Of a stretch of 64,000 nucleotides of DNA, positions 3,884 through 31,716 are shown piece after piece; position 1 is the first letter of the stretch, and each line of letters opens with the position of its first letter. The stretch comes from Rhodospirillales bacterium (lineage in GTDB: Bacteria > Pseudomonadota > Alphaproteobacteria > Rhodospirillales > UBA2165), in assembly GCA_030745835.1 (NCBI GenBank), contig JASLNU010000016.1, positions 40,945 to 104,944 on the forward strand, read 5' to 3'. The notes under the pieces are model-generated. The model was given only the letters and a program-made list of their open reading frames with translations, was not told the origin of the DNA and ran no database searches. The translations under genes were made by a program, and so were the position numbers.

Positions 3884-3917
3884 GATTAGCCTCCCCGTGA
3901 TACAGGCCACTAGGTGG

Positions 3918-6316: not shown

Positions 6317-7268
6317 GGCTTCGCTCGAATTTCTTGAAGACGCCCTCAAGTCCGCCGCTCGCGAACAAGATCACGATGATCAGGAAGGGACCGAAAATCA
6401 GGTGCCAGGCCTCGGTGATATTGGACAGGATTTCCGCCAATATCCAATATAAGAGGGAACCGCCGATCGGTCCGAACAGGGTTCCCATGCCGCCCAGGAC
6501 GACCATGAAAATAAGCTCGCCCGAACGCGGCCAATATATCATGTCGGGGCTGACGAAGTCCTCGAAGTTGGCCGACAGAATTCCCGACAGGCCGCACATG
6601 ACCCCGGCGATGACAAAGGCCGTCAGCTTGTAGCCGTAGGTCGGATAACCGATGGAACGCATGCGCGGATCGTTGGATTTCGAGCCGCGCAGGACCATGC
6701 CAAAGCGCGAGTTGACGATCCGGTGGACCAGATAAAGACATCCCATCATCACCGCGAAGATGAAGTAATAGAAGGTCATCGCGTCCGATAGGTCGAAGAA
6801 AGGAATGCCGAAATCGCTGCGCGCGTCGATCGGCAAGCCATCGTCGCTGCCGTAGAATTCGACGCTCAATGCCAGGAAATAGATCATCTGGGCGAAAGCC
6901 AGGGTGATCATGATGAAATAGACGCCGCGCGTCCGGAGGCAGATAATGCCGAATATCAAGGCAAAAAGGGCGCTTGCCAGCAGACCCACTGGCCACTGGA
7001 TGTAGGCGCTTTCGATGCCGTGGAAAGCCAAAATTCCGACCGTATAGCCGCCGATGCCGAAATAGACGGCATGACCAAAGCTGATCATGCCGCCATACCC
7101 CATGATCAAATTGAGGCTGATCGCGGCGATCGCCCAGATCATCGTGCGCGCGAAAACATCGATAAAGAAATCCTGTCCGATAAGCGGCGCGACGATCGGC
7201 ATCGCCGCGCAGATCAAAACGACGGCGGTGTTGTAGAGTCCGCGGGCGGTCTTAATATAATTCAGCAT
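6309..7268 (-). CDS. livM: Liv-type ABC permease (LivM-like)
   Basis: 319-aa polytopic membrane protein located in the liv-like operon between LivH-like and LivG-like genes. Confidence 0.8.
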   Translation of the reverse strand: MLNYIKTARGLYNTAVVLICAAMPIVAPLIGQDFFIDVFARTMIWAIAAISLNLIMGYGGMISFGHAVYFGIGGYTVGILAFHGIESAYIQWPVGLLASALFALIFGIICLRTRGVYFIMITLAFAQMIYFLALSVEFYGSDDGLPIDARSDFGIPFFDLSDAMTFYYFIFAVMMGCLYLVHRIVNSRFGMVLRGSKSNDPRMRSIGYPTYGYKLTAFVIAGVMCGLSGILSANFEDFVSPDMIYWPRSGELIFMVVLGGMGTLFGPIGGSLLYWILAEILSNITEAWHLIFGPFLIIVILFASGGLEGVFKKFERSHE

Positions 7269-7279
7269 ATCCGGCCATT

Positions 7280-8203
7280 TTAAGCGCCGCGCGGCGGGAA
7301 CAACCCTTGCGGCCTGATGGCCAAGATGACAGCCATCAGGATGTAGATCAGCATTGAGGAAATCGCCGGCCCGGCCGCCTCGGCGGCATTGGGGGCAAGG
7401 AAGTTGAGCATGGCGACATCGATAAACGAGCGCCCCATGGTGTCGATGACGCCGGTCAGCACCGCCGCCACAAAGGCGCCGCGGATCGAGCCGATGCCGC
7501 CGATGACGATAACTACGAAGGCCAGGATCAATACATCCTCGCCCATGCCGCTCTGCGCCTGGGTGATCGGGGTCACGATCATGCCGGCCAAACCGGCGAG
7601 CACCGCGCCGAGGCCGAAAACCAGGGTGAACAGCATCGATATGTTTATCCCCAGCGCCCCGACCATTTCCCGGTTCGACGCACCGGCCCGGATCAGCATG
7701 CCGATGCGTGTCTTGGTGACCAGCAGATAAAGCCCCACCGCCACCAGCATTCCCACGGCGATGATCACCAGCCGGTAGTCGGGAACCGTAATGCCGCCGG
7801 GAAAATTCGAAAATCCGGAAAGATATTCGGGCAACGGAAAGGCGACGCCCGCGGGACCGAAAACAATCACGAACAGCTCGTTAAAGAACAGGATCAGGCC
7901 AAAGGTCACCAAAACCTGATCCAGGTGGTCCCGGACGTACAGGGTTTTGAGGACGGTAAATTCCAGAGCCACGCCGGCAAGCATCATTGTCGGCACGGCG
8001 AGCACCATTCCCAAAACGAAGGAATCAGTCCATAGGGCCAGGGTGGCGGCGAAAAAACCGCCAAACATGTAAAACGTGCCATGGGCCAGATTGATCAGGT
8101 CCATGATCCCGAATACCAGGGTCAGCCCCGCCGCCATCAAAAACAATATGATGCCGAGTTGAAAACCGTTGAACAACTGTTCGGCAAGGAGAACGTAATC
8201 CAT
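7280..8203 (-). CDS. livH: Liv-type ABC permease (LivH-like)
   Basis: 307-aa polytopic membrane protein with an N-terminus of 'LLAEQLFNGFQLGIILFLMAAGLTLVFGIM' type. Confidence 0.8.
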   Translation of the reverse strand: MDYVLLAEQLFNGFQLGIILFLMAAGLTLVFGIMDLINLAHGTFYMFGGFFAATLALWTDSFVLGMVLAVPTMMLAGVALEFTVLKTLYVRDHLDQVLVTFGLILFFNELFVIVFGPAGVAFPLPEYLSGFSNFPGGITVPDYRLVIIAVGMLVAVGLYLLVTKTRIGMLIRAGASNREMVGALGINISMLFTLVFGLGAVLAGLAGMIVTPITQAQSGMGEDVLILAFVVIVIGGIGSIRGAFVAAVLTGVIDTMGRSFIDVAMLNFLAPNAAEAAGPAISSMLIYILMAVILAIRPQGLFPPRGA

Positions 8204-8294
8204 GATCCGACGTCTTGAAGAATTCGCCCCATATATCAGAAAGCGGGAACGGCGTACCGTCCCCGCTTTCCCCGTTTTTTAGCGCCAGCCTTGG

Positions 8295-9473
8295 TTAAAG
8301 CTTGCAATCCTTCACATAGGGCGTTTCGTGATTTTTGAACACCGTATCGCGCAACGAAACCATCCATTTGCCGTCCTTGTCGGCGACCACTTCCCTTGAA
8401 TAGAAATTCTGGATCGGGAAATGATTGCGGCCGAATTTGAACTTGCCGCGGAGCGACGCATAGTCGGCTTTCATCATGGCGGCGCGCATGCCGTCGGTAT
8501 CGCCGATATTGCCATTCAAGGCATCGACACCGGACTTGATCAGCAGGATCGTGTCATAGGCCTGGGCCGCATAGTGCGACGGATAGGCGCCGGTCTTCTT
8601 TTTGAAACCGGCGACAAAGCGCTTGTTGGTGGCGTTATCCAGATCGGGCGCCCAGAACATGGTGTTGTAGGTGCCGAGGATATTGTTCAGACCGGCCTTC
8701 TGGAACAACGGCAGGGTCGAGCCGTCCATCGAAAACACTGTGTAAAGGGGGACCGATTTGGCCAGGCCCGATTGCTTGAACTGGGTCAGGAATTTGGGGC
8801 CCGCGCCGCCTGGATAGAAGGTGAAAACGCCGTCCGGTTTGGCCGCCTTGACCTTCGAAAGCTCGGCCGACCAGTCGGCGTGGCTCGGCCACGGGGTCAT
8901 ATCCCTGCCGACAACCGTGCCCTTGAACCTGGCGGTGACGCCGTTCACCATCTGTTTGCCGGCCGCATAGTTGGCCGCCAAGATGTAGAGTTTTTTGACC
9001 CCCTTCTGATTCAGGAGCTCACCCAGGGCGCGGGCGTTTTGGCTGTTTTCCCAGGCCGCGTTGAAGAAATTCTTGTGGCATTTCTTGCCGGCGTAAAGCG
9101 AGTGTCCGGCGTTGGAACTGATAAAAATCTTGCCCGATTTCAGGACCACCGGCGCCGAAGCCGCCAGCACATGGGACCAGATATAGCCGGCGAAAATGTC
9201 GACCTTGTCTTTTTTGAGAAGCTTTTCGGTCTTCTGCTTGCCTTGCTTCGGATTAAAACCATCGTCTTCGAACACGACCGAGGCATTCTGGCCGCCCATC
9301 TTGTTTCCGATATGCTCCATCGCCAGTTCTACGGCGGCTCTTTGCTGTTTGCCGATAATCGAAGCCGGTGTGGTTAGCGTGGTGACAAAACCGATCTTAA
9401 TGTCTTTAGCGTATGCAACGGGCGCCGCCGTGATAGCCATAACCGGCGCGAGCCAAAGTAATTTCTTTAACAT
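8295..9473 (-). CDS. Periplasmic substrate-binding protein of the Liv-type (cluster B) ABC importer
   Basis: I prefer the ATG at 9473 (MLKKLLWLAPVMAITAAPVAYA, a signal peptide) because GGAGGA lies upstream. Leu/Ile/Val-binding-protein-like fold is inferred from context and from 'KIGFVTTLTTPAS'. Confidence 0.75.
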   Translation of the reverse strand: MLKKLLWLAPVMAITAAPVAYAKDIKIGFVTTLTTPASIIGKQQRAAVELAMEHIGNKMGGQNASVVFEDDGFNPKQGKQKTEKLLKKDKVDIFAGYIWSHVLAASAPVVLKSGKIFISSNAGHSLYAGKKCHKNFFNAAWENSQNARALGELLNQKGVKKLYILAANYAAGKQMVNGVTARFKGTVVGRDMTPWPSHADWSAELSKVKAAKPDGVFTFYPGGAGPKFLTQFKQSGLAKSVPLYTVFSMDGSTLPLFQKAGLNNILGTYNTMFWAPDLDNATNKRFVAGFKKKTGAYPSHYAAQAYDTILLIKSGVDALNGNIGDTDGMRAAMMKADYASLRGKFKFGRNHFPIQNFYSREVVADKDGKWMVSLRDTVFKNHETPYVKDCKL

Positions 9474-9602
9474 GGGATCCTCCATCTGGTCATATTTATG
9501 TTACGAAACGAATTTTTAGCCACTCATTGGCGCGCATTGTAGGGTGGATCGAAGGATATTCCAAGGCATGATGGACCGGATTCAGATAAATAATACATGC
9601 CA

Positions 9603-11171
9603 CTAGATAGCCTCGAATTCGGTTTCACTGTTTCCGTCCCGCGCCGCTTCGGCGGCGCCGTGCAGATCGCGGCGCAGCACCTTGCCCGCCGCGTTGCGCG
9701 GCAAGGCATCGAAGAACATATAGGCTTTCGGCCGCTTGAACCCGGCCAGCCCGCTGGCCCGCAGGTGCGCGTCCAATTGATCGGCGCTAGAACCGGCATC
9801 GCCCGCCACCACGCAGGCGACGACCATCTGTCCCCATTTGGCGTCGCTGATGCCGATCACGGCGGCGTCGGTCACGCCGGCATGGCTGATCAGCACCGGT
9901 TCCACCTCGGACGGGTGGATATGCTCACCGCCCGAGCGGATCATGTCGTCCGAGCGGCCGATCAGATCGACATCGCCATCGTCATGCAGGAGGCAAATAT
10001 CGCCGGTGTAATACCATCCGTCCCGCAGCTTTTCCGCCGTCACTTCGGGCCGGTTCAGATATTCGCTGAAAACAGTGTCGCTGCCGGCATCGACGATCAA
10101 TTCGCCTTCTTCGCCGGCGGCCACCACATCGTCCGGTCCGCCGTCCAATTCGATGACCCGGGTGCGCGAATAGAAACCCGGGCGCAGCCGCCTATGCCGG
10201 CCGACCGGATCGGGGTTGTAGAGCGAGCACATGGTTTCCGTGGTGCCGTAGATGTGGCGCACGACACCGCCCCATTCGGCGTCCATCCGTTGCAAAAGCG
10301 GCGGCACGATTTCCGCCCCGCCATAGAGAACCAGTTGCAGCGAACGCATTTTTTCAGGCGCGTAATTGGGCGCCGAGACAATAGCGAAATAAAGCTGCGG
10401 TACGGCGAACATGTAGGTGATCCCCAGTTCTTCCACCATCTCGTTGGCGGTAACCGGGTTGAAGGCGGATTGAACGAAATAGGTGCCGTTCATGGCCAGG
10501 GTCACCAGGAACACGCCATAAAACCCGATGGCATGGCTGAGCGGCATGAAGCCGAGGGTGCGCAAATGGCTGCCGTGGCGCAGCCCCGCCTGTGTCGAAA
10601 GCCAGAGTATGCGATGCTCGGTCGTGCGCTGGCTCAGCACCACGCCCTTGGGCAGGCCGGTGGTGCCCGACGTGTAGAAGACAAAGGCCGGATCTTCCCG
10701 CGCCAGTTCGGGAAGCGGGCCGAGCGCCCCGGCATCGCTCCGGCAATCGCCGAACGACGTGCCCTCGCTCCGATCCGCGCTCATGGTCAGGATCATGGCG
10801 TCATCGGCCAAGGCCGCGGAAACTTCGGCGGCCAGGTCTTCATCGGGCAGGAGCACCGCGGCCTCGATGCCGCCATCGGCAATCAAGGCTGCGATATCAC
10901 CGGCGGTCAGGCGGAAATTAAGGAGCGCCGGAACCGCGCCCAGCCGTTGCAGCGCCAACAACAGGACCGCGTGATCGAACAGCGGCGGCAAGGCGGTGGC
11001 GACGCGCGTTCCCCTGCCGATGCCGCGTTCCGCCAGGCCGGCCGCGACCATCTCCACCTCGGCGATAAGCTGCGCGTAGGTGAATTGCCTATCGCTGATA
11101 TCATCGACCATGGCCGGCCGGTCGGGCGAGCGTTCGGCGGCCAGCCAGACTAGCTGGTAACAGGTCTGCAT
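9603..11171 (-). CDS. AMP-dependent aryl/acyl-CoA ligase (4-chlorobenzoate/benzoate-CoA-ligase-like)
   Basis: 522 aa with motifs '[13 protein letters not shown]', 'YGTTE', 'YYTGDICLLHDDGDVDLIGRSDD' and 'PRNAAGKVLR'. Confidence 0.85.
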   Translation of the reverse strand: MQTCYQLVWLAAERSPDRPAMVDDISDRQFTYAQLIAEVEMVAAGLAERGIGRGTRVATALPPLFDHAVLLLALQRLGAVPALLNFRLTAGDIAALIADGGIEAAVLLPDEDLAAEVSAALADDAMILTMSADRSEGTSFGDCRSDAGALGPLPELAREDPAFVFYTSGTTGLPKGVVLSQRTTEHRILWLSTQAGLRHGSHLRTLGFMPLSHAIGFYGVFLVTLAMNGTYFVQSAFNPVTANEMVEELGITYMFAVPQLYFAIVSAPNYAPEKMRSLQLVLYGGAEIVPPLLQRMDAEWGGVVRHIYGTTETMCSLYNPDPVGRHRRLRPGFYSRTRVIELDGGPDDVVAAGEEGELIVDAGSDTVFSEYLNRPEVTAEKLRDGWYYTGDICLLHDDGDVDLIGRSDDMIRSGGEHIHPSEVEPVLISHAGVTDAAVIGISDAKWGQMVVACVVAGDAGSSADQLDAHLRASGLAGFKRPKAYMFFDALPRNAAGKVLRRDLHGAAEAARDGNSETEFEAI

Positions 11172-11189
11172 GGCAGGGTTCCTAGTTCC

Positions 11190-11510
11190 TCATGTCTCAT
11201 CGGGCCGGTAGCGCTTGCCGCCGCCCAGTTTATAAATCCGCTTGTAGTGCCCGGTGTTGAAGCGCCGGCCCTCGACCAGGGTGCGGATGAAGGTCACTTG
11301 CTCGACTTCCAGGTTCAAGCGCTCGGCAATCTCGCCATCGGTCAGGCCCATGCCTTCGCGGCCCGCTTCGATGGCGTCCCAATCGAGGCCGCGGACCGGG
11401 TCGCCGAGCCGGGTCTGCTTGTTGTGGCTCAGATCGAATATCTGATTGCCCAGTTCCGCGACCATGTCCTCAGATACCCCATACTGTTCATGGAAACTGG
11501 TTTCGGCCAT
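11190..11510 (-). CDS. Small (106-aa) hypothetical protein with a possible HTH segment
   Basis: The ATG at 11510 overlaps the upstream stop by 1 nt (TGATG). The segment 'GLTDGEIAERLNLEVEQVTFIR' resembles a sigma-70 region 4 / LuxR-type helix-turn-helix. The longer track ORF (to 11609) would run into the upstream gene. Confidence 0.5.
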   Translation of the reverse strand: MAETSFHEQYGVSEDMVAELGNQIFDLSHNKQTRLGDPVRGLDWDAIEAGREGMGLTDGEIAERLNLEVEQVTFIRTLVEGRRFNTGHYKRIYKLGGGKRYRPDET

Positions 11511-12439
11511 CACGCACCTCCTTTTTCGAGGTCCGCCTGGGCCCGGCGGATGGGATCGGCCAATGGCGCCTTGGTGGCGATCGGACAGACCCGCATGCAT
11601 TCGAAGCATTGCGCCAATAGCCCGCCGCTGCCCACCGACATCTTGTACCAGAGGGTCTTGTTTTCGGGCCGGTGCAGCATGGCGCTCCGCTCTTCCGGAG
11701 TTCCGGCGTTCATGGCGCCGGCCAGGACCGAGGCCAGGGTTTCATATTGCTGGGTCATTTCGGCGCAGGCGGCCATCTCGTAATTCATTTCCGTCTGATT
11801 GCCGGCGTCGTCGATGCTACCATCCAGGCATTGCACCGGGCAGAACTTCATGCACGGCGTCTTACCGATTTGTTTGTACATTTGGGCGCAGGAGGTTGCC
11901 GGGCAGGGGTTTTCGGTCATCGGCGCATCGGGCGGCAGCTCCAGTTCGGTGAAAACCGAGGCGAAATACATGTAGCCGTATTCGGGATGCAGCAGAATAT
12001 CGCCGGCCAGGGAACGGGCGCCGATGCCGGCCAGTTCGGCATGCAGCTTGATGCTTTGCAGCGGCACCCTGGAGCCCAGTTCCGGATCGATGTCCGGCGG
12101 ACAATAGACCGAGCGCGCCAGGTACGCCCGCTCGACCATGAACGCCAATCCGTAGGCGATGGAGTAGGCACGGCCCTCGGTTGAGCCGAAAAAGGTCAAG
12201 GCCTTGGCCGGCACGGTCCAGGCGCCTTGCGTCTGGCCGCCGACGCCGAGTGAGATCACCGATTTGACCCTCGGCATCAGATCGCTCGGCCGGTGGCCGG
12301 CGGGCGCGATGCGTTCGATGGCGTCCAGATCGGCAACCCCCGCCGCCAGCGCGCCTTTTTTCAGGCAATAGCCGAGGATCGCTTCCTTGGCCTCATTGGG
12401 ATCCAGGGGGGAATCGATGTCTATTTGGTTTTTTGCCAT
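11510..12439 (-). CDS. QueG/RdhA-superfamily-like iron-sulfur protein, paralog A
   Basis: 309 aa with 'HAELAGIGARSLAGDILLHPEYGYMYF' (compare the QueG core AGLG..GKN..LI..), a Cys-rich block 'CPATSCAQMYKQIGKTPCMKFCPVQC' and a distal 'CFECMRVCPI'. Confidence 0.55.
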   Translation of the reverse strand: MAKNQIDIDSPLDPNEAKEAILGYCLKKGALAAGVADLDAIERIAPAGHRPSDLMPRVKSVISLGVGGQTQGAWTVPAKALTFFGSTEGRAYSIAYGLAFMVERAYLARSVYCPPDIDPELGSRVPLQSIKLHAELAGIGARSLAGDILLHPEYGYMYFASVFTELELPPDAPMTENPCPATSCAQMYKQIGKTPCMKFCPVQCLDGSIDDAGNQTEMNYEMAACAEMTQQYETLASVLAGAMNAGTPEERSAMLHRPENKTLWYKMSVGSGGLLAQCFECMRVCPIATKAPLADPIRRAQADLEKGGA

Positions 12440-12440
12440 C

Positions 12441-13754
12441 TCAGCCGCGCCTGTCGACGAAACGGGGCGCCTTGACGCTGGTTTCGAATTCCTTGGCCAG
12501 GGTTCCCACCTCCAGGAATTCCACCTCGGGGGTCAGCTCGAACTTGATCTTGGTCTCTTCGATGACCGTTGCCCGCAACTGGTCCTCGTCGACGCCCCGG
12601 CGCGCTTCGACGGAAATTTTGAACACGTCATTTCCGTCCTGGCTTTCCAGCGCCTCGGCCTTGAAATCGTTGACCGCCACGTTTTCGAACAGGAAATCTT
12701 CCAGATCCTGGTGGTTGATATTGACGCCGCGCACCTTGAAGAAGCCGGCCGTGCGGTGGGCGTGCTCAATCACCGGGAAGACGGCGAAATCGCTCCCGGT
12801 TGCGCCCTCGCTTTTATAGGTGACGATGTCGGCCGCGTTCCAGCGCAAGAACGGCGCGCCGTTGTTGGAAAACAGCGGCGTGACGATCAACAGCCCGGGC
12901 TCGCCCTCGGCCACCGGCTTTTTGGTTTCCTCGTCGACCACCTCGATATAGGCGAGGTCGGTCCAGATATGAAAGCCGTCGCGGGCCTCGCTTTCGGCGC
13001 CCATCATCGAGCATTCGGTCATCCCGAAACAATCGAACATGTCGGCGCCCCATTCCCGTTCCAGCTTGTCGCGCTTGGCCCTCGATACCGGCTCGGCGGT
13101 GCACAGGATGCGGTTCACGCTGCCGCCCGCAAGATCATAGCCTTCCGCTTGCGCCAGGTTGGCCAGGTGCAGGCCGTAGGAGGACATGCCCATCCACAAT
13201 GTCGGTTTCAGGGACCGGATCAGCTCCAATTGCGTCGCCGACGGCAACGCCGCGCCGGCGCCGGCCCAGACCATGCCGATATCGAGGATGCGCCCGGCCC
13301 GCGCCCACATATGCCCCGCCGGATGGATGCCGAGGGGAAAAGAGAGATGCGCCACATGCCCGGCATCGGTGCCCGTACATGCGAAGGTGCGGGTGAAACC
13401 GACCATGTTGTAGCGGATGTCCTCGTAGGTTTTGGGGTAAAACAAAGGTTTGCCGGTGGCTCCGCCGGAACGCCAGAACTCGCAAATCTCAGGCCCGCCG
13501 GCGATGCAGAAATCGGCGTAGAATTCCTCGGCCGACATTTGGCGAAGCACGTCCTTTTCCAGGATCGGAATCTTCTGCCATTCCTCGGGATCGTCCAGCT
13601 TGTTCATATCGATGCCCGACAGCTTGTCCTTCCAGAAGGCCGATTTTTTCGCATTCTCCACCGCCTTCACCTTCTGGCGGCGTTGGATGTCTTCGATTTC
13701 CCTGCGATCCCTGGGCAGGGCCAGGGGCAGGGTTTCGATTGGGGCTAAGGTCAT
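12441..13754 (-). CDS. Phenylacetate-CoA ligase (PaaK)/coenzyme F390 synthetase-family adenylating enzyme
   Basis: 437 aa with 'WRSGGATGKP', 'GMTE', and the PaaK-style C-terminal small domain ('FKVRGVNINHQDLEDFL...'). ATGA overlap with the upstream gene at 13751-13754. Confidence 0.8.
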   Translation of the reverse strand: MTLAPIETLPLALPRDRREIEDIQRRQKVKAVENAKKSAFWKDKLSGIDMNKLDDPEEWQKIPILEKDVLRQMSAEEFYADFCIAGGPEICEFWRSGGATGKPLFYPKTYEDIRYNMVGFTRTFACTGTDAGHVAHLSFPLGIHPAGHMWARAGRILDIGMVWAGAGAALPSATQLELIRSLKPTLWMGMSSYGLHLANLAQAEGYDLAGGSVNRILCTAEPVSRAKRDKLEREWGADMFDCFGMTECSMMGAESEARDGFHIWTDLAYIEVVDEETKKPVAEGEPGLLIVTPLFSNNGAPFLRWNAADIVTYKSEGATGSDFAVFPVIEHAHRTAGFFKVRGVNINHQDLEDFLFENVAVNDFKAEALESQDGNDVFKISVEARRGVDEDQLRATVIEETKIKFELTPEVEFLEVGTLAKEFETSVKAPRFVDRRG

Positions 13755-14740
13755 GCTGACTTCTCTCCGATCCAGCGTGCCTGGGCCTGATATCCGTCAG
13801 GCATGTTACCAGCCGCCTCGGCGGCTTTCATGTCCTCTAGGCGGGCGTCTTTTTCCGGGCTGGCTTCGGGGATTTCCTCAAGGGCATCCTTCAGCATCGC
13901 ATCATAGTCGTCGCCCGCCGGGCAGACATCCTGGCAGCGGCGGCAGCCGGTCACGACACCGGCGCCGCGCAGGATGCTTTGCCACAAATTGAAGCTCTCT
14001 TCCGAGCGCAGCATAGCCAAGCGCTCCTCCAGGTCCGGCGCATCGAAGATGTTGCCGAGATGCTCGGTCAATTGGGCGAAGCCGTGCGGCGAGCGGTAGC
14101 GGTCGCAAGCCGGCCAGTCGCGCTGCCAATGGCCGATGACATCGCCGGGGCAGGCGGCAAGGCAGCGCCCGCATTCGGGGCCGGGGCAAAGGGCGTCCGT
14201 CCGGCGTTTATCGGTTTCGCAATCGAACGAAGACAGTATGGCCGACAGCATCACCCGCGGCCCGAATTCGGGGGTCAGGAGTTGCAGATTGAGCCCCAGG
14301 GTGCCGAGCCCCGCTTCCACCGCGGCGTGGTTCAGGGACAAAAGCGTCGTCAGATGTTCGCCCGGATCGTTCTGGTAACGCCAAGGATCGACATGGGTCG
14401 GCGGAATGATGATCGCCGGATAACCGTTGTCTTCCAGCCAATAGACGATGTCGAGGGAGGTTTCCTCGAGCGCCGTCAGGGTCAGTTCGTCATTGTAATA
14501 TTTGTGGCGTTCGTCCCAGCGGGCGATGCGCGAGGTGCCGGCGGTCAGTTTCTTGGCGATGATAATCACCTTGCCGGCATCGTAATCGGTGATGTCGGAG
14601 GGGCGGCGCTGATCGTCGGCGCCCGGCGGGTTGGCCTCAAGCTCCATGCCGTCGGCGATGCCGACCAGATCGGCGCCGAATTCCATGGCCTTGGATTTGA
14701 CCGCCTCGGCGCTGATCGGGGTTTGAAATTCAGAAACCAT
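13751..14740 (-). CDS. QueG/RdhA-superfamily-like iron-sulfur protein, paralog B
   Basis: I prefer the ATG at 14740 (MVSEFQTPISAEAVKSKAMEFGADLVGIADG) because GAGGAGGA lies upstream. Core 'NHAAVEAGLGTLGLNLQLLTPEFGPRV', clusters 'CPGPECGRCLAACPGD' and 'CRRCQDVCPAG'. Confidence 0.6.
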   Translation of the reverse strand: MVSEFQTPISAEAVKSKAMEFGADLVGIADGMELEANPPGADDQRRPSDITDYDAGKVIIIAKKLTAGTSRIARWDERHKYYNDELTLTALEETSLDIVYWLEDNGYPAIIIPPTHVDPWRYQNDPGEHLTTLLSLNHAAVEAGLGTLGLNLQLLTPEFGPRVMLSAILSSFDCETDKRRTDALCPGPECGRCLAACPGDVIGHWQRDWPACDRYRSPHGFAQLTEHLGNIFDAPDLEERLAMLRSEESFNLWQSILRGAGVVTGCRRCQDVCPAGDDYDAMLKDALEEIPEASPEKDARLEDMKAAEAAGNMPDGYQAQARWIGEKSA

Positions 14741-14744
14741 GCAC

Positions 14745-15758
14745 TTAATCCTCCTCACCGGCGCGTTCTTTTTGGCGCTTTTTGAATTCCTGTAGCTGGC
14801 GGGCGACGATGCCCTGATAGCCGTCCGGCCCGACCCAGCGCAGGTTCCATTCATTCAGCCCGGCGATCTCGGCGCCGCTCTTGCGCGCTTCCTTGAAGCC
14901 AGCCGCCTTGGTCTTTTTCTCGGGCGTCATTTCCGGGATCACCTTTTGCATTTTGGCCAGGTGCGCGTGGTAATCGTTGCCCACCGGACAGACGGCGAGG
15001 CAGCGCGGGCAATCGCCGAACGAGCCGACGACCCGCAGGAGACCCTGCCAGAAGCCGAATATTTCCCGGTCGGCGAGCAGCGCCTTCTGCTCGGCGGCCG
15101 GCTTTTGCGCATATTCCTCCCAGAAGCGGAGGATGGTGTGGAAGCCGAATTCCTGGGCCTCGGTGGCGCAATTGCGCTTGTCGATGCCGAAATGGCGGAC
15201 CGCGTCGGAGGGGCAGGAATAGAGGCAGCGGGAACAGCTTTCGCCGATGCAGACCTGTTCGCTCATCGGCGCATCGGCGTCCAATTCGGCTTCGGTCAGG
15301 ATGCCCGTCAGGTAAAGGCGCGGGCCGAATTCGGGAGTCAGGATATTGACCTCCAGCCCGAAGGTGCCGAGCCCGGCTTCAATCCCGAGATGGCGGGTCG
15401 AAAGCCTGCCGTAGCTGGCTTTCTTGTAGCTCCAATCGGTTTCCTGGCCGGCGGTGACAAAGCTCGGATGGCCGTCCCGTTCCAAAGCCTCGGCGATGCG
15501 GTAGGCGATGCGGTCCATGCGCCGGAGCACCATCATATCCATATATTGGACCGGCACCGTCGTCTTGCAGCGAAAAGCCCCAACCGGAATACGCTTGACG
15601 ATGACGACGACGCTTTTGACGTGCGGCGAGATGCGTTCCGGCGTCTGCGGGAACTTGGGATCGGGCGGCAAGGCGTTGAGTATGTCGGCGCCGGCGATGC
15701 CGACCAGGTCGGCGCCCAGTTCCTTGGCCAGGTTTTTTACCGCCGCCGCGTCCATCAT
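14745..15758 (-). CDS. QueG/RdhA-superfamily-like iron-sulfur protein, paralog C
   Basis: I prefer the ATG at 15758 (MMDAAAVKNLAKELGADLVGIAG), which forms an ATGA overlap with the upstream ligase stop. Core 'TRHLGIEAGLGTFGLEVNILTPEFGPRL', clusters 'CIGESCSRCLYSCPSDA' and 'CPRCLAVCPVG'. Confidence 0.6.
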   Translation of the reverse strand: MMDAAAVKNLAKELGADLVGIAGADILNALPPDPKFPQTPERISPHVKSVVVIVKRIPVGAFRCKTTVPVQYMDMMVLRRMDRIAYRIAEALERDGHPSFVTAGQETDWSYKKASYGRLSTRHLGIEAGLGTFGLEVNILTPEFGPRLYLTGILTEAELDADAPMSEQVCIGESCSRCLYSCPSDAVRHFGIDKRNCATEAQEFGFHTILRFWEEYAQKPAAEQKALLADREIFGFWQGLLRVVGSFGDCPRCLAVCPVGNDYHAHLAKMQKVIPEMTPEKKTKAAGFKEARKSGAEIAGLNEWNLRWVGPDGYQGIVARQLQEFKKRQKERAGEED

Positions 15759-17401
15759 CCGCCCGCCGGCTTGAGCCGGCCTTTCATGACCTTGTTGGTG
15801 GGCGTCAGCGGAAAAGACTCCACCAGCTCTAGATGCTCCGGCCATTTGTTCTTGGCCATCTGGTTGGCGTCCAGGAACGCGGTGATGGTTTCGAGGCTCA
15901 CATCAGCGCCGGCGGCGGGTTGCACGAAGACACAGGCGCGCTCGCCCAGAACCGAATCCTTCATGGGCACGATGGCGCATATCGCGACATCATCCATCTT
16001 GCCGATCAATGCCTCCACATCGGCGGGGTTGAATTTGACGCCACCGCGGTTGATCACGTCCTTGGTGCGCCCGGTGATGCGGAGGTAGCCGTCCCCGTCG
16101 ATGGTCGCAAGATCCCCCGTATGGAACCAGCCATCGGTGAAGGATTGGTCATTGGCCTCAATGTTATTGTAATAGCCGGGGAATACGGACGAGCCCCTGA
16201 TCTGCAATTCGCCCTCTTCGCCGGTTCCAAGGCGCGCACCGTCATCGCCGACGACGCAGATTTCGTTTCCGGGCGTTACCAGGCCGACCGTGTCGTACCG
16301 GTTGCGTGGGCTATCGCCGGGCCGGTTATAGGTGCCCGCCTGCAATTCGGTCATGCCCCAAAGCTGTAGAAACTGGCCACCCGGCAGTTGACCGTCCACA
16401 TATTCGGCCAGATCGGACGGACATGAACTGCCCGAACAAATTACCAGCCGGACCGAGCTTAAATCGGCGCCTTCATATAATCCCGCTTTCTGGCAGGCGG
16501 CGTGATGGGCGGGGCCGGTGAACAGCACGCTGGCCTGACCCTCGGCCACGGCGGCGACGAAATCGGGCGGCGTGAAGGCGGGCAGCACATAGGTGGTGAC
16601 GCCGGCGCAAAGACCGATCTGCAGCGAAAACAGCCCGTAAAGATGGCTGAAGGGCGCCGGGCTGAGGATGACGTCGTCATCGCTGATCTGGAATTCCTTG
16701 ACCGAATGGCGGGCGTTGGAGCCGAACGGATGGGCGCTGACCGCAACCCCCTTGGGGCTGGAAGTGGTGCCCGAAGTATAGAGGATCACATGGGGATCGT
16801 CCGGCGACGGCCGGCGACTGGGCGGCGCTGTGCCGGTCCCAAAAAGGTCAGAATAAGAAACGGCTCCTTCCGTTGGTTCGCCGAGGGCGAACACATGATC
16901 CAGGTGCGCCAGTTTATCCTTCAAGCCCACATGGACCTCGGCCAGCGGATAATCCTTGAACCGGGCAAGGCAGATCACGGCGCGGGCGCCGCTATGGGCC
17001 AACAGCCCTTCCAGTTCGGCGGCCCGGTAAGGGAGGTGAATGGTCTGCATGACCCCGCCGATGCGGGTTATGGCAAGAAATGACAGAATGAATTCCGCCG
17101 TGTTGGGCAATTGGATGGCGATGACATCACCATGGCCGAGACCCATCGCCGTAAAGCCGCCGGCCAAATCGTCTATCTTGGCGTTCAGCTCGGCGAAGGT
17201 GATGGCTGCCCCGCCGCCGGCGATGGCGGTCTGATCGGGCTTGGCGGCGGCGGCGCGCTCGATCCAATCGATCGCGGTCTCGTCCAGCCACAGGCCTGTT
17301 CCCCGGAAATCGCGGTCGGCGTTCTTCCAATATGGCGGAAGTTCGGAGCCTTTCACCGGCGGTGCCTCCCTCTTTTCAGTTATCGCGTCGATGGGTTTCA
17401 T
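15755..17401 (-). CDS. AMP-dependent acyl-CoA synthetase/ligase
   Basis: 548 aa with motifs 'LYTSGTTSSPKGV', 'WGMTE', 'FHTGDLATIDGDGYLRITGRTKD' and 'PTNKVMKGRL'. Confidence 0.85.
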   Translation of the reverse strand: MKPIDAITEKREAPPVKGSELPPYWKNADRDFRGTGLWLDETAIDWIERAAAAKPDQTAIAGGGAAITFAELNAKIDDLAGGFTAMGLGHGDVIAIQLPNTAEFILSFLAITRIGGVMQTIHLPYRAAELEGLLAHSGARAVICLARFKDYPLAEVHVGLKDKLAHLDHVFALGEPTEGAVSYSDLFGTGTAPPSRRPSPDDPHVILYTSGTTSSPKGVAVSAHPFGSNARHSVKEFQISDDDVILSPAPFSHLYGLFSLQIGLCAGVTTYVLPAFTPPDFVAAVAEGQASVLFTGPAHHAACQKAGLYEGADLSSVRLVICSGSSCPSDLAEYVDGQLPGGQFLQLWGMTELQAGTYNRPGDSPRNRYDTVGLVTPGNEICVVGDDGARLGTGEEGELQIRGSSVFPGYYNNIEANDQSFTDGWFHTGDLATIDGDGYLRITGRTKDVINRGGVKFNPADVEALIGKMDDVAICAIVPMKDSVLGERACVFVQPAAGADVSLETITAFLDANQMAKNKWPEHLELVESFPLTPTNKVMKGRLKPAGG

Positions 17402-17551: not shown

Positions 17552-18439
17552 ATGACAAAATCCAGTCCCATGATCGGCGCCTCGCTGATGACCACCGCGT
17601 TGATCTTCAACGGCGTCAAGGACGGTTTCGCCAAGCTTCTTTCGGGCAGCTACGAGCCCTTGATGCTGCTCTGGATGCAGCTTCTGTTTGCCTGCGTGGT
17701 CCTTCTGCCGGTGATCGTGCGCCGCCATGGGGTTTCCATTTTGCTGCCGAAGCCGTTCATGTTGCAGGTCCTGCGGGCGTCGGTTCTGGTCATCGGTGTC
17801 GGCTGCTTCTATTGGTCGCTCCGTTTCATTTCCCTTGCCGACGCCACCGCGATGATCTTCCTGGCGCCGCTGGTGGTGACGGCGCTGTCGCCCCTGGTGT
17901 TGGACGAGGCATTGGGCAAGCGCCGCAGCATCGCCGTGGTTATCGGTTTCCTCGGGATTCTGCTCATTCTCCGCCCCGCTTTCGACGGTGATCCCAAGGG
18001 TTACATGATCGGACTGGCGGCGGGCTTTTCCATCGGCCTTTTCTATATCGCCAACCGCAAGCTGGCCGCCTACACGCCGCAGATCGTGGCCGCCGCCTAT
18101 ACGCCCCTGATCGGCGCGATCCTGGTTGCGCCCCTGGCGCCGCTGTTCTGGACGGCGCCGCTTATCGAGGACGGCGGGTTGATCGTGGCGTTCCTGGTGC
18201 TGGCGACATTGGGCCAGGTGATGATGATCTCGGCCTTCGCCTATGCGCCCGCCAATATCATCGCGCCGTTTCAATATTCACAGATCATCGGGGCGATCGG
18301 CTTCAGCGTCATCGTGTTCAACGATTTCCCCGGTCCCTGGACCTGGTCGGGGATCGCGCTGATCGCCGGCGCCGGCATCTATATCGCCGTCCGCGAAACC
18401 CGCACCAAGGACGGCCAGAAACCCCGGGCGGCCGGTTAA
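17552..18439 (+). CDS. DMT-superfamily (EamA-like) transporter
   Basis: 295 aa with about 10 hydrophobic segments and a two-fold EamA-like organisation. Confidence 0.75.
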   Translation: MTKSSPMIGASLMTTALIFNGVKDGFAKLLSGSYEPLMLLWMQLLFACVVLLPVIVRRHGVSILLPKPFMLQVLRASVLVIGVGCFYWSLRFISLADATAMIFLAPLVVTALSPLVLDEALGKRRSIAVVIGFLGILLILRPAFDGDPKGYMIGLAAGFSIGLFYIANRKLAAYTPQIVAAAYTPLIGAILVAPLAPLFWTAPLIEDGGLIVAFLVLATLGQVMMISAFAYAPANIIAPFQYSQIIGAIGFSVIVFNDFPGPWTWSGIALIAGAGIYIAVRETRTKDGQKPRAAG

Positions 18440-18648
18440 TCCGAAACAGTTGCCGCCCAAGCCAGCATTTCCTCGCCCCACGATTTGGCGGTCGGCGCAT
18501 CGACATCGAGGATGGTAAAGCGCGAACCTTCGCGGATGCGGATGCGCAAAAGCTTGAGCCCGCTTTCGTGGACGACATCTTGCAGCAGCACTTGGCGGCC
18601 ATAGGGCGCCTCGAGCTCGGCTAGGTCTTTGACGTCTTCGCCGGTCAT
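18436..18648 (-). CDS. Small hypothetical protein (70 aa)
   Basis: The ATG at 18648 (MTGEDVKDLAELEAPYG...) overlaps the upstream stop by 1 nt (TGATG). I do not recognise a family. Confidence 0.45.
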   Translation of the reverse strand: MTGEDVKDLAELEAPYGRQVLLQDVVHESGLKLLRIRIREGSRFTILDVDAPTAKSWGEEMLAWAATVSD

Positions 18649-18866
18649 CAGCGGCGCGCCGTGAATGCGATTTCGAGGGCGGTTTCCCAATCGCGCGGCG
18701 TGTCGCCGAAATCGGGCTTCAGATCGAACTCGATCAGGACCAGCCCTTGCTCGCCGCTTTTGCGCACCACCTGCAGCAATTCGGCGAAGGAATTGATCTC
18801 GTGATGCTGGATGATGATATCGCTGAGCTTCAACATAGGTGTCTTTATCCTAGTGGCCTGCGTCAT
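18648..18866 (-). CDS. Small hypothetical protein (72 aa, or 62 aa from the ATG at 18836)
   Basis: ORF immediately downstream of the TauD-like gene and translationally coupled to the next small ORF. I do not recognise a family. Confidence 0.45.
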   Translation of the reverse strand: MTQATRIKTPMLKLSDIIIQHHEINSFAELLQVVRKSGEQGLVLIEFDLKPDFGDTPRDWETALEIAFTARR

Positions 18867-18880
18867 GTAATTTTGTCGGA

Positions 18881-19846
18881 TTATCGGTACCCGGTTCCGG
18901 CAATCCGATCAAGGTAGTAGACGCGGTAAATGAGCCGCTTTTGCGCTTCGCCGGCGCCGTCGACAAACGCCGTCCGCCCATGCAGGACATTGTTGCAGAC
19001 CAGCCCCCAGCCGGGTTTCAGGGTCACTCTATGAATATATTGGGAATCGCCGGTAAACAGCCGGCCGAGGCATTCCAGGCCGCCCTTGACGGCGCCGTCA
19101 TCGGCCCCATCATCGGCCCAACTGACGAACCGCTTGCGTGCCGTGTAACGCAAATGAAGGGCGCCGGTTTCAGGATCGATGGCGAAGGCCGGCCCCGCTT
19201 GCTCGGACCGCCGCTCGATACCGCCTTCGATATTGGCGGGGATGGTCAGGGCATCGGGGCGCATCAGGGCGCCGATGAAATCCGGGTTTTCGTCGCGGAG
19301 GTGAATGTAGGCGATGTCGGGATCCAGGAGAAAGCTTTCGCCGCCCGATGCGGCGGCGCCGGCGCAATGCAGCAGCAAGGCCCGGACCCGGCGTTGGGGC
19401 GGGTTATAGGTGCCGTCCGTGTGCCAGCCGAGGGCCCGGTCGGTGTAGGGAATATAGCTCTGTTTTTCGGCATCGCCCGAGACCGCCAGTTCGCTGACGC
19501 CGTCTTCGTCGGTGGTCAGCGGCTTATCGATCCTCTTCAGGCCGAGGCGCGCGCCCAACTCCAAGGGCAGGCTTTTGTCACCGGCGCCCGAAACGCCGGA
19601 CGCATAGACCGCCATGTTGGCCCGCCGGCACAGGCTGGTCAGCGCCGCCGCCTCGTCCGCCGAAAGCCTCGCCGGGTCTTCGACCGGTACGATCAACTCG
19701 TCCAGGGACCCCGGGTAGCCGGCCAGTTTTTGATCCCGCCACCGACGGTAAGCGCCCTCGTTCTCCAGATCGAACGGAGAGCCGTGATGCTGGCCATTGG
19801 TCGCCCCAGGGGCGCTGCCGGGGAGGCGGGCTGTCTCAGATTTCAT
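18881..19846 (-). CDS. TauD/TfdA-family Fe(II)/2-oxoglutarate-dependent dioxygenase-like protein
   Basis: 321 aa with 'LGWHTDGTY' (the HxD of the facial triad) and distal 'NNVLHGRTAF' (His plus Arg). Confidence 0.65.
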   Translation of the reverse strand: MKSETARLPGSAPGATNGQHHGSPFDLENEGAYRRWRDQKLAGYPGSLDELIVPVEDPARLSADEAAALTSLCRRANMAVYASGVSGAGDKSLPLELGARLGLKRIDKPLTTDEDGVSELAVSGDAEKQSYIPYTDRALGWHTDGTYNPPQRRVRALLLHCAGAAASGGESFLLDPDIAYIHLRDENPDFIGALMRPDALTIPANIEGGIERRSEQAGPAFAIDPETGALHLRYTARKRFVSWADDGADDGAVKGGLECLGRLFTGDSQYIHRVTLKPGWGLVCNNVLHGRTAFVDGAGEAQKRLIYRVYYLDRIAGTGYR

Positions 19847-21623: not shown

Positions 21624-21675
21624 TCGCGCTGCCGGCCGGTGTTCCACACGAATAGTTGAAAGCAAGGGTTATTAA

Positions 21676-22758: not shown

Positions 22759-22788
22759 GGCTGGATGATTTAAGGTTAAGGGGTGGGG

Positions 22789-23148: not shown

Positions 23149-23171
23149 TGGTCACCTTTGGGGATTGATAG

Positions 23172-23573: not shown

Positions 23574-23584
23574 GAACTGATACG

Positions 23585-23893: not shown

Positions 23894-23931
23894 CTTAGGT
23901 CTGTCCGACACAGAGAGTGGGGAATATTTCA

Positions 23932-24264: not shown

Positions 24265-24309
24265 GGCACGCGGCCCCGAATACGTGCCGGGGCGGAGGGA
24301 AATAGCGTT

Positions 24310-31712: not shown

Positions 31713-31716
31713 CAAT

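Follow-up and report, generated by a model that had tools for sequence, protein, structure and literature searches.

We found that the minus strand of a 64,000-nucleotide stretch of Rhodospirillales DNA (here called the window) carries an operon that joins two separable cassettes. One encodes two iron-sulfur proteins and a PaaK-like ligase (C-B-PaaK), and the other encodes a third iron-sulfur protein, A, with a 106-aa protein and, in some loci, a ligase. On sequence grounds, C, B, and A all belong to the QueG/RdhA superfamily, and none of them is QueG or a family-level reductive dehalogenase (RDH). We give roughly even chances to the interpretation that the operon (approximately 4860 to 17401) serves the catabolism of a carboxylic acid, probably aromatic or alicyclic, that is reduced by cytoplasmic proteins of a QueG/RdhA branch. 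A sequence-only reading had described three paralogs wrapped around a PaaK-type enzyme; this description had to be amended, since each cassette is also found alone.

The three ORFs proposed in that reading exist on the minus strand (Table 1). Reading the junctions directly, we found all of the predicted start/stop overlaps: ATGA between lig548 and C (15755-15758) and between B and the PaaK-like gene (13751-13754), and TGATG between A and the 106-aa gene (11508-12). C and B are separated by a 4-nt spacer, and the Shine-Dalgarno sequence there is GAGGAGGA, and the PaaK-like gene and A are separated by a 1-nt spacer. These overlaps and short spacers argue for a single operon. Longer ORFs with upstream starts (13751-14854 and 14745-15845) were rejected because the homologues are 329 to 340 aa long. 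No electron-donor gene was found in the operon.

Table 1. Genes of the operon and its flanks. Importer Pfam domains were called on the contig identical to the window's.
Feature	Coordinates	Strand	Description
lig548	15755-17401	-	548 aa; FadD-type AMP-binding acyl-CoA ligase; operon's first gene
C	14745-15758	-	337 aa; QueG/RdhA-superfamily Fe-S protein; putative catalytic subunit
B	13751-14740	-	329 aa; C paralog; may serve C as a non-catalytic or electron-transfer partner
PaaK-like	12441-13754	-	437 aa; PaaK/F390-synthetase-type adenylate-forming ligase
A	11510-12439	-	309 aa; divergent QueG/RdhA-superfamily Fe-S protein; core of second cassette
106-aa protein	11190-11510	-	free-standing form of lig548-type AMP ligase N-terminal domain
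lig522	9603-11171	-	522 aa; second FadD-type AMP-binding acyl-CoA ligase
LivJ-type ABC importer	4860-9485	-	Pfam Peripla_BP_5/6, BPD_transp_2, ABC_tran
Importer substrate-binding protein	8295-9485	-	
Importer permeases, two	7280-8203 and 6309-7268	-	
Importer ATPases, two	5570-6349 and 4860-5573	-	
EamA-family permease	17552-18439	+	PF00892; divergent from operon

The similarity among the three proteins far exceeds chance: B and C are 34% identical over 318 aa (E = 7e-57), A and C are 28% identical (E = 3e-12), and A and B are 24% identical (E = 7e-10). This bears out the common scaffold proposed earlier, and the motifs quoted for it are all found in the translations, namely, the N-terminal ELGADLVGIA segment, the H..(x)..AGLG..GL...LTPEFGPR core, and the Cys runs of C (CIGESCSRCLYSCP and CPRCLAVCPVG) and B (CPGPECGRCLAACP and CRRCQDVCPAG). 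A had been called more degenerate, but it keeps all eight Cys; its first Cys motif is C-x4-C-x11-C-x3-CP, with a 9-residue insertion. The eight cluster Cys residues are 100% conserved among 26 C-type, 18 B-type, and 16 A-type sequences. Their spacing fits the QueG cluster ligand sets, Cys184/187/190/243 and Cys194/210/236/239 (PMC4646009). Class-III enzymes carry no sequence motif that marks cobalamin binding (PMC4646009). Profile alignment sets Y86 of C, the class-III Tyr, on the Tyr of the QueG DYH motif. This column holds Tyr in 88% of C-type and 100% of A-type sequences and Leu in 18/18 B-type sequences. We found 2465 homologues of C, many of them 76 to 90% identical, and 948 homologues of A, which are 70 to 85% identical.

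In NCBIfam searches, the sole non-ferredoxin matches were QueG and RDH. TIGR00276 (QueG; cut-off, 200 bits) scored 51 bits for C, 34.7 for B, and 24 for A, in alignments that span just ~60 to 80 model positions. The RDH profile (cut-off, 160 bits) scored 29.6 bits for C and did not match A or B. A PDB sequence search with C returned QueG (5d08; E = 3e-9) and PceA (1e-6), and a family profile improved these to 1.6e-13 and 1e-12, respectively; NpRdhA matched at 1.5e-5. We obtained a structural model of low quality for C (pLDDT, 62; below 50 in the Fe-S half). When it was searched with Foldseek, the best 46 matches were QueG, PceA, NpRdhA, or an RDH complex, and the B12 chaperones CblD and CblC came after these. 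These searches support the QueG/RdhA-type scaffold that had been recognized earlier, and C belongs to the superfamily by fold as well. The strongest similarity is confined to the ferredoxin half and one loop.

QueG (Bacillus subtilis 5d08/5t8y and S. thermophilus 5d6s) is the best sequence and fold match. The window proteins resemble it in having an N-terminal corrinoid-type domain, an AG(L/I)G...TPE(F/Y)G loop, an eight-Cys ligand pattern for two [4Fe-4S] clusters, and, in C and A, the active-site Tyr. In contrast, they are only ~20% identical to QueG and have a ~27-residue insertion between the fifth and sixth Cys. The QueG catalytic Asp is replaced by Ser in C, Met in B, and Arg in A; the Asp and His of the DYH motif are missing from all three. 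Pfam detected no DUF1730 or HEAT-type C-terminal domain in them, the latter corresponding to the tRNA-binding repeat domain of QueG. Whereas QueG stands alone, the window proteins are multi-paralog, putatively heteromeric, and share their operon with ligase and transporter genes. Because the curated scores are far under the cut-offs and the QueG Asp, the DYH Asp and His, and the C-terminal domain are missing, we place none of them in the QueG or RdhA family.

With the RdhAs (respiratory PceA 4uqu/8q4h and catabolic NpRdhA 4ras and BhbA), the window proteins share the superfamily and the redox-chain architecture. Like the catabolic RdhAs, they are predicted to be cytoplasmic, with no TAT signal, and they lie in an aromatic-acid catabolic setting. 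Unlike RdhAs, they are 309 to 337 rather than 450 to 700 aa long, score far under the RDH cut-off, lack an RdhB anchor and a fused reductase module, and would act as a C/B heterodimer, whereas RdhAs are single chains. Their coupling to CoA or AMP ligases is, to our knowledge, without precedent among RdhAs.

We found that C and B are neighbours in 15/15 related loci, always with B directly after C, and that the PaaK-like gene directly follows B in 14/14 loci with sequence there. All of these relatives are uncultured genomes. A C-B fusion protein of 678 aa occurs in other marine organisms, on 19+ contigs from five sources; the fusions are seen as P0300 and P0301, of which P0301 is a second, independent fusion. 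We propose that C and B form a heterodimer. The heteromeric assembly suggested earlier is supported for C and B only, by their constant adjacency and fusion. Upstream, lig548 is conserved 5' of C in L005, L006, and L013. An enoyl-CoA hydratase gene adjoins the C-B fusion and is also present in L001 and L019-22, and CoA-transferase genes occur in neighbourhoods of relatives. The C-B fusion has no ligase close by, and distant multi-module relatives are ligase linked in 1/80 loci, so the ligase partner may be dispensable.

A occurs without C-B-PaaK in five loci (L016-18, L106, and L107), and the 106-aa protein always adjoins A. The latter had been described as HTH-like, but it has no significant Pfam or NCBIfam match, HTH families included; its single-sequence model is helical (pLDDT, 52). 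It is 56% identical to residues 9 to 104 of the 653-aa AMP ligase after A in L018, and such fusions of 653 to 661 aa occur in five independent contexts (L012, L016/17, L018, L106, and L107). lig548 shows 42% identity to the L018 fusion in its ligase part and is of the same orthologue type as the ligase that bears this domain elsewhere. We propose that the 106-aa protein corresponds to the docking or N-terminal domain of a FadD-type ligase, detached from its enzyme. FAA-hydrolase and thioesterase genes adjoin A in relatives, and in L089 an A-like protein has an acyl-CoA dehydrogenase and an AMP ligase on one side and a LivJ-type ABC transporter on the other.

The PaaK-type call for the 437-aa ligase was confirmed. 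It has AMP-binding and AMP-binding_C_2 domains, like the phenylacetate-CoA ligase PaaK and its clade (F390 synthetase FtsA, FlxY, BagE/FevW, and amide synthetases of the AjiA1 type), with the P-loop SGGATGKP and the C-terminal catalytic Lys region, and it matches PaaK 4r1l in the PDB (E = 1.5e-27). Its best curated families are PaaK (147 and 105 bits), FlxY (132 bits), and F390 synthetase (83 bits), all under the equivalog cut-offs; the scores of 105 to 147 bits compare with cut-offs of 646 to 700 bits. Unlike PaaK, it has no paa ring-epoxidase genes nearby and is always encoded after two QueG-like genes. The flanking genes are AMP-binding ligases by Pfam, as had been proposed: lig548 has AMP-binding (7e-76) and AMP-binding_C, and lig522 has AMP-binding (1e-61) and AMP-binding_C (6e-16). 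The best NCBIfam matches of lig548 are long-chain (313 bits) and cyclohexanecarboxylate-CoA (303 bits) ligases; these and every lig522 match are under cut-off, and the window ligases fit no curated substrate-specific family. The aryl specificity proposed earlier for lig548 and lig522 is thus far putative. lig522 is present in L013 (79% identity) and missing from L005.

The recurring neighbours are the LivJ-type importer, EamA, enoyl-CoA hydratase, and aromatic ring-cleavage genes, with the aromatic-catabolism genes varying between loci. Six loci (L005, L007, L009, L012, L013, and L089) have a homologous transporter next to the cassette, and the importer is likely the uptake system for the substrate. 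EamA genes are near C-B-PaaK in L001, L005, L019, and L020 and near A in L016-L018. In L012, a gentisate-1,2-dioxygenase-like gene lies directly 3' of the PaaK-like gene, with a Rieske oxygenase gene close by. In L001 and L019, a true RDH-family gene (TIGR02486, 203 bits; cut-off, 160) lies ~6 kb from C-B-PaaK, in a block that also holds Amidohydro_2, RidA, EamA, CoA-transferase, and ECH genes. In five genomes whose flanks otherwise differ, a RibA GTP cyclohydrolase II gene is divergent beside C-B-PaaK.

These data bear on several other explanations. The proteins could be a divergent, heterodimeric type of RdhA that takes Br or Cl off halogenated aromatic acids after CoA activation, a possibility we consider unlikely but worth weighing; it is equally tentative that these acids would include bromo-hydroxyphenylacetates or benzoates and that the hosts would be aerobic bacteria, marine and sponge associated. 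The RdhA fold and RDH profile matches, the nearby RDH gene, and the presence of Defluviicoccus MAG proteins among the closest C homologues are consistent with it, and known catabolic RdhAs (NpRdhA and BhbA) act on halogenated hydroxybenzoates. However, those enzymes are single polypeptides that use free acids rather than CoA esters, the RDH score of C is low and A and B score nothing, the window has no halogen-related gene, and only one group of related genomes has a true RDH gene adjacent. It is similarly doubtful that corrinoid binding has been lost, leaving cobalamin-free poly-[4Fe-4S] proteins that carry electrons to another enzyme or a nitroreductase-like N-domain that performs flavin or direct Fe-S chemistry. 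The restricted QueG/RdhA similarity, the missing Asp and His residues, the short lengths, and the lack of the Tyr in B would fit this, as would the absence from the window of any Rfam element, cobalamin riboswitch included. Nevertheless, the N-terminal domain fold search brings up only corrinoid proteins (QueG, RdhA, and CblC/CblD), the Tyr is kept in 2/3 types, and whole proteins are 70 to 90% identical across orders, which suggests a catalytic rather than generic ferredoxin role.

A biosynthetic cassette, in which the PaaK/F390-synthetase-like enzyme adenylylates a cofactor or metabolite (e.g., a flavin or pterin derivative) that C/B then reduce, seems quite improbable. F390 synthetase is in the same ligase family and adenylylates F420 at a phenolic OH, and RibA is a suggestive neighbour, but the RibA link comes from one related clade (77% identical RibAs) and is absent from the window and L005-L014, and an importer with two FadD-type ligases is typical of catabolism. 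That one paralog is the housekeeping queG is very improbable indeed. Some sources automatically name homologues "epoxyqueuosine reductase QueG," but the profile scores, the substituted catalytic residues, the missing C-terminal domain, and the location within a ligase/transporter operon all oppose this, and we rejected it at the sequence level for A, B, and C.

We therefore return to the reduction of an activated acid as our working model. The LivJ-type transporter would bring in the acid, and the adenylate-forming ligases (one PaaK type and two FadD type) would turn it into an acyl-AMP or acyl-CoA. This would be reduced by a new cytoplasmic QueG/RdhA branch of class-III B12/2x[4Fe-4S] reductases, for which we infer a probable corrinoid, the subunit roles, dependence on a CoA thioester, and the reaction itself. 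In the first cassette, C is likely catalytic because it retains the class-III Tyr, and B, with Leu at this site, is likely a scaffold or electron conduit; the second would pair A with the detached ligase domain. An external donor of low potential may supply electrons, which would reach the corrinoid (or other) site by way of the two [4Fe-4S] clusters; a two-electron reductive elimination at this site could release a halide, a hydroxyl group, or the oxygen of an epoxide. CoA-thioester activation followed by reductive elimination has precedents in 4-hydroxybenzoyl-CoA reductase, dehalogenation by benzoyl-CoA reductase (BCR), and epoxide deoxygenation by PaaABCE. The shared mechanism logic is an analogy only: these enzymes belong to the Mo-hydroxylase, BCR, and di-iron families, which are unrelated to the window proteins, and none employs a QueG/RdhA-type protein. 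The earlier reading knew of no described pathway with this composition, and we found no pathway, paper, assigned name, or curated model that covers either cassette. Such ligase-paired Fe-S cassettes are widespread, and their function is probably the reduction of activated acids.

Three paralogous Fe-S proteins, which we call C, B, and A, are encoded on the minus strand of the window in one gene string with a PaaK-type ligase, two FadD-type AMP-binding ligases (lig548 and lig522), a 106-aa protein, and a LivJ-type importer. We found that the junctions read exactly as the sequence-only reading had described them, with ATGA overlaps at lig548/C and B/PaaK and a TGATG overlap at A/106-aa. C and B are separated by 4 nt, and the PaaK-type gene and A are separated by 1 nt. 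Long open reading frames on the opposite strand (e.g., 9597-11153 and 12387-13748) were rejected as high-GC shadow frames. An RNA scan found no Rfam element, including riboswitches, within the window, and promoter and terminator scans of the window gave signals not above those of shuffles. The tested gene products of the window are identical to those of a marine MAG (GCA_002687515.1, contig NZAK01000058.1).

Coordinates and strands of the features of the operon, the dsr cluster, and the RibA genes of related loci (L numbers)
Feature	Sequence	Coordinates	Strand	Remarks
lig548	window	15755-17401	minus	first in transcription order
C	window	14745-15758	minus	second, after lig548; 337 aa
B	window	13751-14740	minus	third, after C
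PaaK-type ligase	window	12441-13754	minus	fourth, after B
A	window	11510-12439	minus	fifth, after PaaK; 309 aa
106-aa protein	window	11190-11510	minus	sixth, after A
lig522	window	9603-11171	minus	seventh, after 106-aa
LivJ-type ABC importer	window	4860-9485	minus	last in gene string; binding protein 8295-9485
dsrA	window	20343-21623	plus	
dsrB	window	21676-22758	plus	
DsrK	window	25065-26597	plus	
DsrP	window	31972-33198	plus	NrfD-type
DsrN	window	34225-35658	plus	CobB/CobQ-like
RibA	L001	8747-9895		divergent to C-B-PaaK
RibA	L019/L020	7742-8893		divergent to C-B-PaaK
RibA	L021	7776-8888		divergent to C-B-PaaK
RibA	L022	7735-8850		divergent to C-B-PaaK

Other genes surround this string. An alpha/beta-hydrolase gene (3918-4784, minus) lies just past the ABC transporter with two more AMP-binding ligase genes (189-1754, plus, 521 aa; 2036-3910, minus, 624 aa), and five genes for adenylate-forming enzymes fall within the window's first 17.4 kb. 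The stretch 18436-19846, between an EamA gene and the dsr cluster, holds a gene for a DUF6967 protein (18436-18690, minus), a 62-aa ORF, and a gene for a TauD-family dioxygenase (18881-19846, minus), an arrangement that is kept on identical contigs. A complete oxidative-type dsr cluster (20343-35658, plus) starts ~500 bp past the TauD gene and also holds DsrEFH, DsrC, DsrM, and a tandem pair of DsrL-like genes (26435-28549 and 28550-30511), both of which carry Fer4_20, Pyr_redox_2, and a ferredoxin domain at the C terminus. The duplication of dsrL in the window is unusual.

Profile libraries, PDB sequence searches, and a fold search with a model of C firmly placed the three proteins in the superfamily of epoxyqueuosine reductase (QueG) and reductive dehalogenases (RDH; RdhA). 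In a Pfam search, A, B, and C gave sub-threshold ferredoxin matches only. The NCBIfam QueG model TIGR00276 scored A, B, and C at 24.0, 34.7, and 51.0 bits against a cut-off of 200, and these matches spanned only model positions ~129-207 of 337. The NCBIfam RDH model TIGR02486 scored C at 29.6 bits against a cut-off of 160.35 and matched neither A nor B. When we searched the PDB with C alone, we found QueG (5d08; E 3e-9) and PceA (E 1e-6). A 45-sequence profile found QueG (1.6e-13), two PceAs (1e-12 and 2e-12), Streptococcus thermophilus QueG (8e-10), and NpRdhA (1.5e-5), and one ferredoxin was the only other match. The AlphaFold model of C had a pLDDT of 62, with the Fe-S half below 50. The top 46 PDB matches of this model in Foldseek were all QueG, PceA, NpRdhA, or an RDH complex (E 2e-8 to 8e-5), although TM was only ~0.35; the B12 chaperones CblD/CblC came next. 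Foldseek and the sequence profile together predict that C has an N-terminal corrinoid-binding-type (nitroreductase-like) fold followed by a ferredoxin module. The QueG/RdhA scaffold recognized earlier was recovered by profile searches and, for C, by the fold search.

Membership of QueG proper or of RdhA proper is excluded. A, B, and C are only 309 to 337 aa long, and their alignment to QueG stops past the second Cys motif. Pfam found no DUF1730 or HEAT domain in them, and there is no helical-repeat C-terminal domain. Their low TIGR00276 scores and the absence of this domain and of catalytic residues rule out that any copy is simply the housekeeping queG. Nor do they have the build of a catabolic RdhA (a ~700-aa chain or a fused reductase). 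Two marks of a respiratory RdhA are absent as well: their N termini open straight with the conserved core, with no twin-arginine motif or TAT signal, and the operon has no gene for a small membrane anchor like RdhB.

The paralogy of the three proteins was confirmed by pairwise comparison. B is 34% identical to C along 318 residues (E 7e-57); A is more distant, with 28% identity to C (E 3e-12) and 24% identity to B (E 7e-10). An alignment of 26 C-type, 18 B-type, and 16 A-type sequences, taken from related loci, database matches, and two natural fusions, showed that eight cysteines are 100% conserved in all three types (C170, C175, C178, C182, C197, C250, C253, and C257 in C), arranged as three cysteines, a fourth followed by proline, one lone cysteine, and finally CxxCxxxCP. 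Because all eight are invariant in every type, A is not degenerate, as had been thought; it differs only by a 9-residue insertion within the first Cys motif. In S. thermophilus QueG, the two [4Fe-4S] clusters are held by interleaved ligand sets, Cys184/187/190/243 and Cys194/210/236/239 (PMC4646009). The eight-Cys pattern corresponds to these two sets; the fifth and sixth cysteines stand ~27 residues further apart than in QueG.

One active-site tyrosine, above the corrin, is the sole residue common to all class-III B12 enzymes (PMC4646009). By profile alignment, Tyr86 of C is the putative equivalent of the Tyr of the QueG D-Y-H motif. The column set in this way holds Tyr in 88% of C-type and 100% of A-type sequences and Leu in 18 of 18 B-type sequences. 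The flanking Asp and His of the QueG motif are absent in this alignment, replaced by Ile/Ala and Arg. The column of the QueG catalytic Asp (D130 in S. thermophilus, D134 in Bs), assigned by the Tyr-to-Asp spacing (PMC4646009), holds Ser in C (Ser115), Met in B, and Arg in A.

When 1.84 billion representatives were searched exhaustively with a profile, 4,813 relatives were found at E ≤ 1e-3. The best two matches, of 678 and 670 aa, each consist of a complete C-type module followed by a complete B-type module. The 678-aa sequence occurs identically on at least 19 contigs from several sources (NCBI, JGI, ENA, Logan, and Tara), and its cluster holds more members of 672 to 678 aa; we therefore consider this fusion genuine. 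It adjoins an enoyl-CoA hydratase gene and has no ligase nearby. Both C-B fusions (P0300 and P0301) are genuine. Two apparent ones from a clustered protein database, P0153 (543 aa) and P0154 (515 aa), were rejected because their junctions and tails read out of frame, indicating gene-calling read-through over frameshifts; database protein lengths should be used with caution as evidence of fusion. Constant adjacency of C and B, together with natural fusion, supports a putative C-B heteromer, and to this extent the heteromeric reductase proposed earlier stands.

Among more distant relatives, chains of 725 to 836 aa hold two or three QueG-like modules, are often in tandem arrays, and often follow an IclR-type regulator gene. 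Together with the C-B fusions, they make multi-module assembly a theme of this branch. An ancient PaaK link to these relatives was not found; any AMP ligase occurred in only 1 of 80 metagenome loci. This family (L023-L102; P0350, P0366, P0376, and others) comes mostly from mid- or low-GC metagenomic contigs, reaches RDH scores of up to 126 bits, below the cut-off, and is named only by automatic annotation as QueG.

Homologues are widespread, with ~2,500 detectable for C and ~950 for A, many of them 70 to 90% identical. Their hosts are marine, sponge-associated, soil, and groundwater Rhodospirillaceae, Defluviicoccus, other Alphaproteobacteria, and Burkholderiales. None of the relatives is from a cultured, studied organism, and a plasmid collection gave no match for C. 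Scanning the genome collection with just C yielded no more than 11 loci, as the peptide patterns were too specific, and a profile search with the A/B/C alignment added little, mostly returning C orthologues already found.

Comparison of neighborhoods showed that the coupled gene order of the window is made up of two separable cassettes and is not a single unit built around PaaK. B directly follows C in 15 of 15 related loci, and a PaaK-type ligase follows B in all 14 that have sequence there. The other cassette is A with the 106-aa gene. This pair adjoins PaaK in the window, L005, and L013, lies 2.5 kb off in L006, and is divergent in L012. It is absent near C-B-PaaK in L001, L019-22, L009, L010, and probably L014, and A occurs without C-B-PaaK in L016-18, L106, and L107. 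A 310-aa gene after PaaK in L001 was rejected as an A homologue (E 1.4). A 370-aa MetE-like gene (PRK06520-type, Meth_synt_2) adjoins PaaK in a Burkholderiales locus (L008, 3328-4440, minus), and the same kind of gene adjoins A in L016/L017 (8701-9813, minus). The Meth_synt_2/MetE-like family also includes Zn-dependent alkyl and epoxide transferases.

The PaaK-type ligase has an AMP-binding core (PF00501, 1e-12) and an AMP-binding_C_2 domain (PF14535, 2e-4) in Pfam, and it matches the PaaKs 4r1l (1.5e-27) and 2y27 (1.4e-21) in the PDB. On these matches we place it in the PaaK-like clade of ANL adenylate-forming enzymes, in agreement with its earlier assignment. It scored below the PaaK equivalogs (TIGR02155, 104.6 versus 646 bits; NF041878, 146.9 versus 700 bits), the window holds no paa catabolic genes, and no ligase of the operon reached any substrate-specific curated cut-off. 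A second PaaK-type paralog, 52% identical to that of the window, lies 4 kb upstream of C-B-PaaK in L009 (4613-5992, plus), next to genes for an OYE/FadH-like flavoprotein and a LivJ-type binding protein.

The 106-aa protein had been taken as HTH-like, and we found no significant HTH or other profile match for it; a single-sequence model (pLDDT 52) gave no fold assignment. In L012 and in the A-only genomes (L016-18, L106, and L107), A is followed by the gene for a 653- to 661-aa AMP ligase. The first ~105 residues of this ligase match the 106-aa protein (56% identity, E 1e-30), and the ligase portion resembles lig548 (42% identity, E 2e-132). This homology identifies the 106-aa protein as a detached domain of a ligase. 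A 142-aa gene of L089 was rejected as a further homologue. QueG-like and adenylate-forming enzymes are paired in two independent ways: C/B goes with the PaaK-type ligase, and A goes with a ligase of the FadD type that bears the 106-aa domain. L089 provides a third case of such pairing.

The recurrent neighbors include transport and acyl-CoA genes. A LivJ-type importer lies beside the cassette in the window, L005, L007, L009, L012, and L013, and EamA permeases, enoyl-CoA hydratases, and a CoA-transferase recur. FAA-hydrolase-family and thioesterase genes adjoin A. In L012, a cupin gene like gentisate/5-aminosalicylate-1,2-dioxygenase directly follows PaaK, and a Rieske oxygenase is also present. 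In L089, an A-like protein, whose first Cys motif has the insertion seen in A, is flanked on one side by an acyl-CoA dehydrogenase and an AMP ligase and on the other by a LivJ-type ABC transporter. The best-supported reading, which we give an even chance of being right, is a catabolic module for import, activation, and reduction of an organic acid. According to this model, the acid would be imported by the LivJ-type system, activated to an acyl-AMP or acyl-CoA by the ligases, and reduced by cytoplasmic class-III-type Fe-S (probably corrinoid) enzymes. In the proposed C-B heterodimer, catalysis would fall to C, and the Tyr-less B would serve as a scaffold or in electron transfer; A would be an additional reductase that moves separately and is tied to a ligase of its own. 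We infer the corrinoid and the roles of the subunits, as well as the reaction, which may be reductive loss of halide, hydroxyl, or epoxide oxygen. The observation behind the sequence-only reading is confirmed, and its interpretation, a reductase of an activated organic acid, is largely right. The anatomy calls for refinement: the genes form two cassettes, and the 106-aa protein corresponds to a domain of a ligase and is not a demonstrated HTH protein.

A more specific version of this model is that the proteins are divergent catabolic dehalogenases. A true RDH-family gene lies ~6 kb from C-B-PaaK in L001 (2305-3606; 202.7 bits with TIGR02486 versus a cut-off of 160) and L019 (1384-2694), in a block with Amidohydro_2, RidA, EamA, CoA-transferase, and enoyl-CoA hydratase genes. 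This gene and the occurrence of hosts named Defluviicoccus favor the dehalogenase version. Nothing in the window supports a dehalogenase, however, and we regard this version as unlikely. Because class-III cobalamin binding has no sequence motif (PMC4646009), it also stands as an alternative, though an improbable one, that these are cobalamin-free redox proteins. A biosynthetic role is suggested only by the kinship of the ligase to F390 synthetase and the adjacency of RibA (a PRK08815-type GTP cyclohydrolase II of 370 to 383 aa), which divergently adjoins C-B-PaaK in five Defluviicoccus-like genomes with differing wider flanks. This link is real but confined to one clade and absent from the window and the other loci, and we consider a biosynthetic role very unlikely.

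Returning to the catabolic module, we know of only two established reaction types for class-III B12/Fe-S reductases, organohalide dehalogenation and epoxyqueuosine reduction, and of no QueG/RdhA-type enzyme that carries out reductive elimination on thioesters. We tentatively propose, as a possibility somewhat short of even, that C/B and A form a new class-III corrinoid/2x[4Fe-4S] family. C/B would be the first heterodimeric enzyme of this kind, with one catalytic and one Tyr-less subunit. C/B and A would act on CoA- or AMP-activated organic acids by reductive elimination (dehalogenation, dehydroxylation, or epoxide deoxygenation), and the family would be common among Proteobacteria of aerobic marine, sponge-associated, and soil settings. 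The QueG structure paper predicted that more class-III families exist, which the lack of a cobalamin motif makes difficult to detect (PMC4646009).

As in the sequence-only reading, which knew of no pathway of this composition, we found neither a curated family nor any source annotation or paper describing these cassettes, with subscription journals thinly covered. Source databases call the C and A homologues "hypothetical," "ferredoxin," or "QueG." The cassettes represent a widespread branch of the QueG/RdhA superfamily, whose putative heterodimeric architecture and ligase coupling are new to descriptions of that superfamily. The analysis delimits a candidate family with thousands of highly conserved members and a defined subunit logic (a C-B pair, its natural fusion, and a Tyr-less partner), along with repeated genetic coupling to acid-activating ligases and an importer. 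This brings the family within experimental reach, since the substrate can be sought by screening the binding protein and the three ligases. If the substrate is a halogenated or hydroxylated aromatic acid, these cassettes would reveal a CoA-dependent reductive route that is new to oxic marine carbon or halogen cycling, and the frequent misannotation of their genes as QueG or ferredoxin would also be corrected.
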